Position numbers and translations under genes: made by a program. 64,000 bases of DNA, from the NCBI RefSeq assembly GCF_055900595.2, contig NZ_CM148325.1, one strand, 5' to 3'. Of this stretch, positions 37,172 through 37,317 are shown piece after piece. The notes beneath the pieces were generated by a model. That model searched no databases, was not told where the DNA came from, and saw nothing but the letters and a program-made list of their open reading frames with translations. Within the stretch, counting starts at the first letter, position 1. Each line of letters opens with the position of its first letter.

Positions 37172-37286
37172 GTAAACTCCGGGCAAACTATCTGCCGCTA
37201 TCATAGCGGTTTTTCAGTGACGCAGGGGATGTTGTTACTTTTCAGTGCTTGCCGCGATGAGAACAGAGGCGTATTTTAATAATAAC

Positions 37287-37300
37287 GTTCGTATACGAAC
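37287..37300. promoter_or_regulatory. Perfect 14-bp palindrome, candidate operator for the MarR-family regulator
   Basis: gttcgtatacgaac, about 20 bp upstream of the UbiX-like start codon, inside the divergent intergenic region. Confidence 0.45.
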
Positions 37301-37317
37301 AATTAAGAGAATTAACA

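Follow-up and report, generated by a model that had tools for sequence, protein, structure and literature searches.

A conserved palindrome upstream of a hydroxyarylic acid decarboxylase operon matches the published operator of the MarR-family repressor HosA

Introduction

The closest described system to the locus reported here is HosA of Escherichia coli UMN026. According to secondary accounts of the original study, the palindrome bound by HosA lies downstream of the HAD operon's transcription start, and the protein represses both this operon and its own gene and is released by 4-hydroxybenzoate (4-HBA) (Roy & Ranjan 2016, Biochemistry 55:1120). In EMSA and biolayer interferometry, HosA bound DNA with a "14-bp" palindromic site, and 4-HBA, with a KD of 4.74 uM, dissociated the complex (Cao et al. 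2018, PMC6261655). The HosA/site pair has been reused as a 4-HBA biosensor (PMC6261655, PMC6694116), and the same HosA-DNA pair is found in a Cas12a sensor and in a 2026 review of sensors. The operator sequence is not given in PMC10992608.

An earlier note had drawn attention to a palindrome in the window, i.e., the whole 64-kb stretch of DNA analysed here. The palindrome was read as the likely operator of a MarR-family regulator, through which a phenolic acid derepresses a decarboxylase operon and possibly the regulator gene itself. The present analysis compares this locus with the published HosA system and follows the site across E. coli alleles and other genera.

The hosA locus and its genomic setting

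The locus is the rpoS-mutS polymorphic region of Escherichia, with the gene order surE, pcm, nlpD, rpoS, hosA (reverse), decarboxylase subunits B, C and D, pphB (reverse), a Sel1-repeat gene (reverse), and mutS (reverse). The rpoS-hosA-BCD-pphB synteny is identical in the annotated E. coli O157:H7 EDL933, and the control region was found in 2381 of 5426 complete E. coli genomes. The MarR-family protein is HosA, matching the protein deposited as "Transcriptional regulator HosA" (PDB 8AGA) with 275 bits and 129 of 134 aligned residues (about 96%). All five residues that differ from this crystallised EPEC protein are conservative substitutions. The protein also matches Pfam MarR, and RefSeq annotates a 408-nt MarR-family CDS at the same position. 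The divergent operon encodes subunits B, C, and D of a non-oxidative hydroxyarylic acid decarboxylase, all three scoring above the NCBIfam cut-offs. The region between them, which had been delimited as the divergent MarR/decarboxylase intergenic region, is exactly that, since it is bounded by the start codons of hosA (37171-37169, minus strand) and of the UbiX-like subunit B gene (37318). The features are collected in Table 1.

Table 1. Features of the hosA/decarboxylase locus, in window coordinates
Feature	Position	Strand	Basis
hosA, MarR-family repressor, 135 aa, 4-hydroxybenzoate sensor	36764..37171	-	PDB 8AGA match, Pfam MarR, RefSeq
Divergent control region hosA/decarboxylase operon, 146 bp	37172..37317	no strand	
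Second palindrome CCGCTATCATAGCGG, candidate hosA -10	37195..37209	no strand	Core CTATSATAG conserved across genera
Predicted -35 hexamer TTGCCG	37249..37254	+	Inferred; TTG 100% conserved
Predicted -10 hexamer TATTTT	37272..37277	+	Inferred; T1, A2, T6 100% conserved
HosA operator, perfect 14-bp palindrome GTTCGTATACGAAC	37287..37300	no strand	Symmetry, conservation, published HosA probes
Operator half-site GTTCG	37287..37291		
Operator centre TATA	37292..37295		
Operator half-site CGAAC	37296..37300		
Shine-Dalgarno-like AAGAG, 8 nt before ATG	37305..37309	+	Aligns with GAGG of other genera
Decarboxylase subunit B, UbiX-family flavin prenyltransferase	37318..37911	+	NF041206 VdcB, 311 bits (cut-off 290); RefSeq
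Decarboxylase subunit C, UbiD family	37911..39338	+	NF041204 VdcC, 788 bits
Decarboxylase subunit D	39349..39585	+	NF041205 VdcD, 120 bits

Several side observations concern the variability of this region. The hosA-operon allele of the window (36600-39700) is rare; an identity of at least 99% over 3.1 kb was reached in 10 of 5417 matching E. coli records, most of which are 90-95% identical. The closest relatives carry an IS200/IS605 tnpA between rpoS and hosA (L083:435-893), which the window does not have. The Sel1-repeat gene between pphB and mutS (40306-41169, minus strand; Pfam Sel1, 143 bits) encodes a secreted-looking protein of 287 aa and adds to the variable cargo genes of the rpoS-mutS region. 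An orphan hosA is present in E. coli Z1323PEC0008 (L007:1523-1620), a strain that has lost both the operator and the decarboxylase operon. In this strain, similarity to the window ends at about 37255, in the promoter spacer, and is followed by a truncated SLC13 permease pseudogene and ygbM; the breakpoint marks a recombination junction of the polymorphic region.

The palindrome and the published HosA site

Direct checking of the sequence confirmed both the coordinates and the self-complementarity of the palindrome, GTTCGTATACGAAC being its own reverse complement. Around it, the window reads taataac, GTTCGTATACGAAC, aattaagagaattaaca and ATG in this order, so that 17 bp separate the end of the palindrome from the UbiX-like start codon, for which "about 20 bp" had been a fair description. 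Symmetry of this length is not rare in the window. Three perfect ungapped palindromes of at least 14 bp were counted, compared with 5.15 +/- 2.07 in 100 dinucleotide-preserving shuffles of the 64 kb, and about 0.012 such palindromes are expected in any given 146-bp region. As the bare count is not above chance, rarity was dropped as an argument, and the case for an operator rests on position and conservation. A search of the window for further HosA-like sites with up to two mismatches returned only 15798-15811, against 3.37 expected by chance; with fewer matches than chance, this sequence was rejected as an additional HosA site.

The palindrome is identical to the published HosA site. In Table S1 of PMC6261655, the probe flanks are CAGAGGCGTATTTTAATAATAAC...AATTAAGAGAATAAACAATGAG, and the oligo TH of the same table contains GTTCGTATACGAAC verbatim. 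When the TFBS is read as 14 bp, the resulting 59-nt probe matches window positions 37264-37322 at 58 of 59 nucleotides, the one mismatch being located in the 5' UTR outside the palindrome, and occurs without any mismatch in E. coli CFSAN061763 (L002). As machine-read, Table S1 gives a 15-mer TFBS, GTTTCGTATACGAAC, on both strands. We argue that this is a reading error and that the TFBS is 14 bp, because the printed oligos are not complementary, because the stated 43-bp EMSA probe needs a 14-bp TFBS, and because oligo TH carries the 14-bp form.

The window thus shares with the UMN026 system the 14-bp operator sequence, the flanks, the regulator, the operon, the rpoS-mutS location, and the ligand class. 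The differences are only allelic, namely the single 5' UTR base outside the site and, relative to the EPEC protein, the five substitutions in HosA. Because the site, the regulator, and the operon are those of the published system, the feature is already known; the palindrome is the published HosA operator, and the earlier note made a sound observation and a supported reading of something that is not new. Its proposal of a MarR-family operator is supported by the neighbouring gene being hosA. Derepression of the decarboxylase operon by a phenolic acid corresponds to the release of HosA by 4-hydroxybenzoate, as secondary accounts of the 2016 study describe it. Binding and release were demonstrated with UMN026 HosA on near-identical DNA, and the same behaviour would be expected of the window allele.

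Conservation across E. coli alleles and genera

For a survey of species, HosA was used as query against one genome per species, which yielded 75 loci from about 20 genera, mainly Enterobacteriaceae. In about 70 of the 75 loci, hosA divergently adjoins a UbiX-like gene. The motif GTTCGYRYRCGAAC is present without mismatch in 73 of the 75 intergenic regions, and both Rahnella loci have it with one mismatch, reading ATTCG... In nearly all loci, it is placed 15-21 bp upstream of the ATG of the first gene. In an alignment of 68 sequences, the base of the window is matched in 99.7% of cases in the 5-bp arms, 84% in the central 4 bp, and 48% in the rest of the intergenic region. The central variants TATA, TACA, TGTA, TATG, CATA, and TGTG all alternate pyrimidine and purine, and several are not perfectly symmetric. 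This pattern suggests direct readout of the arms and indirect readout of the centre, as would fit a dimer on two half-sites. The cross-genus consensus obtained is GTTCG-YRYR-CGAAC, at a fixed distance from a promoter with a 17-nt spacer. Within E. coli, the palindrome is kept in seven alleles, down to 87% identity over a 191-nt stretch, and a single A-to-G change in its centre was detected in one of the seven.

Outlying loci carry the motif as well. Superficieibacter (L066, L071) retains the palindrome together with the promoter, at about 140-215 bp upstream of hosA; the first downstream gene is subunit C (MAFDDLRSF...), and subunit B (UbiX-like) was not found in the locus. In the actinobacterium Fodinicola feengrottensis (L080), a HosA-like gene of 47% identity and a UbiX-like gene of 72% identity are divergently arranged, and two tandem copies of the motif, GGTCGTAGACGAAT and GTTCGTGTACGAAT, lie in the very short intergenic region at L080:2948-2976. 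These copies indicate that the operator motif has been conserved far outside the Enterobacterales or co-transferred with the genes. A separate observation comes from an Enterobacterales MAG, in which the HosA core is embedded in a perfect palindrome of 36 bp, AGTTAGATAACGTTCGTATACGAACGTTATCTAACT (L075:2823-2858), located upstream of a 60%-identical hosA-like gene; no UbiX-like gene was found in this locus.

Promoter geometry of the decarboxylase operon

A strict sigma-70 consensus scan of 36650-37450 returned no promoter, the hexamers being too weak, and the promoter was inferred from cross-species conservation instead. The pattern TTGNNN-N17-TANNNT is present in 73 of the 75 regions, with a spacer of 17 nt every time. 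From the end of the -10 to the palindrome, the distance is 7-10 nt in these 73 loci, with a mode of 9, which is also the value in the window. The distance between site and ATG is 36 nt in Rahnella, yet a TATAAG box is still found 9 nt from the site; the conserved spacing is operator-to-promoter, not operator-to-ATG.

With the predicted hexamers, the start site of the operon would be expected near 37283-37285, i.e., 6-8 nt after the -10, so that the operator would span about +2/+4 to +15/+17 of the transcript. This predicted start agrees with the published placement of the site downstream of the transcription start. The palindrome had been likened to MarR-family sites that overlap the promoter. 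It does not, however, overlap the predicted -35 or -10. With such a geometry, HosA would be expected to act as a block immediately past the start site and not by occluding the core promoter.

The hosA promoter and autorepression

The second, 15-bp palindrome of the control region, CCGCTATCATAGCGG, is followed by TTTTT and is listed by the pattern scan as terminator-like on the plus strand. The columns of its core are conserved at 0.76-0.96, the central S at 0.41. The core reads TATGAT or TATCAT on either strand, and the long arms are Escherichia-specific. This element, 23-39 bp upstream of the start codon of hosA, is therefore a candidate -10 of that gene, with TATGAT running from 37205 to 37200 on the minus strand. 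The control region also contains the direct repeat TTTTCAGTG at 37211-37219 and 37239-37247, 28 bp apart, which is probably not significant because it is not conserved in 88%-identity E. coli alleles.

That the regulator possibly controls itself had been suggested earlier, and the published accounts of HosA, so far as they relate the original study, do report autorepression relieved by 4-HBA. The conserved -10-like box nearest to hosA is more than 80 bp from the operator palindrome, and the geometry consequently does not account for the reported autorepression. A hosA promoter overlapping the operator (minus strand, TTGTTC-N18-TAAAAT, found by eye) was considered as a possible route; its support consists of weak hexamer matches.

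Function of the palindrome and alternative explanations

The palindrome very probably serves as the operator through which HosA represses the decarboxylase operon until 4-hydroxybenzoate releases it. One winged-helix domain of the HosA dimer would contact each GTTCG/CGAAC half-site. Starting about 9 nt after the -10 and covering the first transcribed positions, bound HosA could block RNA polymerase at initiation or just after. A substrate of the decarboxylase, 4-hydroxybenzoate, would then bind HosA, which would leave the DNA, and the operon would be switched on.

With a start site at the predicted position, the palindrome would be part of the transcript, and the 5' end of the operon mRNA could contain a hairpin, GUUCG-UAUA-CGAAC, that sets stability or translation, with no DNA operator involved. 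A 5-bp hairpin is indeed predicted in the 5' UTR, and the four variable positions of the palindrome would form its loop. Its fold, however, is no better than that of shuffled sequences (-6.6 kcal/mol against a shuffle mean of -6.63, z = 0.01), the stem is invariant and hence shows no covariation, and the hairpin does not pair with the Shine-Dalgarno sequence. In 36600-37600, the gathering score was not reached by any Rfam family. Together with the z value and the invariant stem, this led to the rejection of a cis-regulatory RNA element. Moreover, the second copy of the motif that other genera carry upstream of the -35 is outside the operon mRNA, and binding of HosA to the DNA has been shown directly (PMC6261655). 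An RNA function in place of the operator is very unlikely.

The unremarkable number of palindromes in the window would agree with a chance occurrence, or the sequence could serve another DNA-binding protein and have no HosA role in this strain. Near-invariance over about 20 genera whose flanks have diverged to 48% excludes chance, and the fixed distance to the promoter and the identity with the published HosA site also speak against this explanation, which is extremely improbable. The pattern scan lists the palindrome itself as terminator-like on the minus strand, where TGTTCGTATACGAACG is followed by TTATTATTAA. The stem of such an intrinsic terminator would have only six pairs, three of them G-C, and the tail is interrupted. 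Nor is there anything to terminate, since on the minus strand the palindrome is upstream of hosA and preceded only by the antisense of the B gene. Conserved arms with a free YRYR centre fit recognition by a protein. The terminator has next to no probability and was rejected as a scan artefact, produced by the palindrome and the AT-rich tract after it.

A second, distal site in other genera

About half of the species surveyed (about 32-36 of 75) possess a second HosA-like site, GATCGYRYRCGAAC. Its centre lies 56-57 bp upstream of the proximal palindrome, and 4 nt separate its end from the -35. The genera include Enterobacter, Klebsiella, Kluyvera, Lelliottia, Leclercia, Pseudocitrobacter, and Pluralibacter; in Klebsiella, the site reads GGCCG... 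An example is L041:2902-2915 (minus strand of the locus), and the site has the same position in loci L013, L016, L025, L026, L028, L029, L031, L032, L037, L038, L040-L044, L047-L051, L053-L057, L060-L062, L064, L065, L067, and L081. The 75-locus comparison revealed no distal site in Escherichia (including the window), Citrobacter, Salmonella, Kosakonia, and Atlantibacter. In Escherichia, the corresponding stretch is shorter by about 25 nt.

The operator architecture may therefore differ by lineage, with Escherichia, Citrobacter, and Salmonella having lost or never had a distal HosA operator and relying on a single site, a proposal that we regard as tentative and somewhat doubtful. No description of such a lineage difference was found in the literature, in which the study of Roy & Ranjan (2016) is represented by secondary accounts. 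Should HosA indeed use the distal site as an operator, Escherichia would have a simpler switch with one operator, which would probably be leakier. A possible second operator in other genera could interest engineers of 4-HBA sensors.

As a discovery, the palindrome carries little weight, the trio of HosA, 4-hydroxybenzoate, and operator having been characterised in 2016 and being already a biosensor part. The operator was nevertheless called correctly from the sequence alone, which validates that first reading. The annotation of the window is now fixed; within the rpoS-mutS polymorphic region, it comprises hosA and its operator, the promoter, and the genes for decarboxylase subunits B, C, and D.

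Comparison with related regulators

PcaV, HpaR, and HucR are MarR repressors that sense phenolic acids; they act as winged-helix dimers on short palindromes in divergent regions, from which an aromatic acid releases them. After HosA, the next-best solved homologue of the window protein is PcaV from Streptomyces coelicolor (PDB 4FHT, E = 7e-16), which is only distantly related (61 bits vs. 275 for HosA), and HpaR gives a weak family match. The target pathways of PcaV, HpaR, and HucR differ from that of HosA, and their operator sequences probably do so as well.

The decarboxylase operon has a homologue in bsdBCD (yclBCD) of Bacillus subtilis, which comprises UbiX-like, UbiD-like, and small subunits and is induced by hydroxybenzoates. 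Its regulator BsdA is a LysR-type activator and not a MarR repressor, and the operator logic is unrelated to that of HosA.

MarR of E. coli is a weak family match to the window protein (27 bits vs. a cut-off of 240). Like HosA, it is a homodimeric repressor of the MarR fold that acts on a palindromic operator near the promoter and is relieved by phenolic ligands. The marO operator has two sites, one over the -35/-10 and the other over the ribosome-binding site, whereas only one site, shortly after the predicted start, is present in the Escherichia hosA/HAD region. A two-site layout as in marO reappears in the hosA regions of Enterobacter and Klebsiella.
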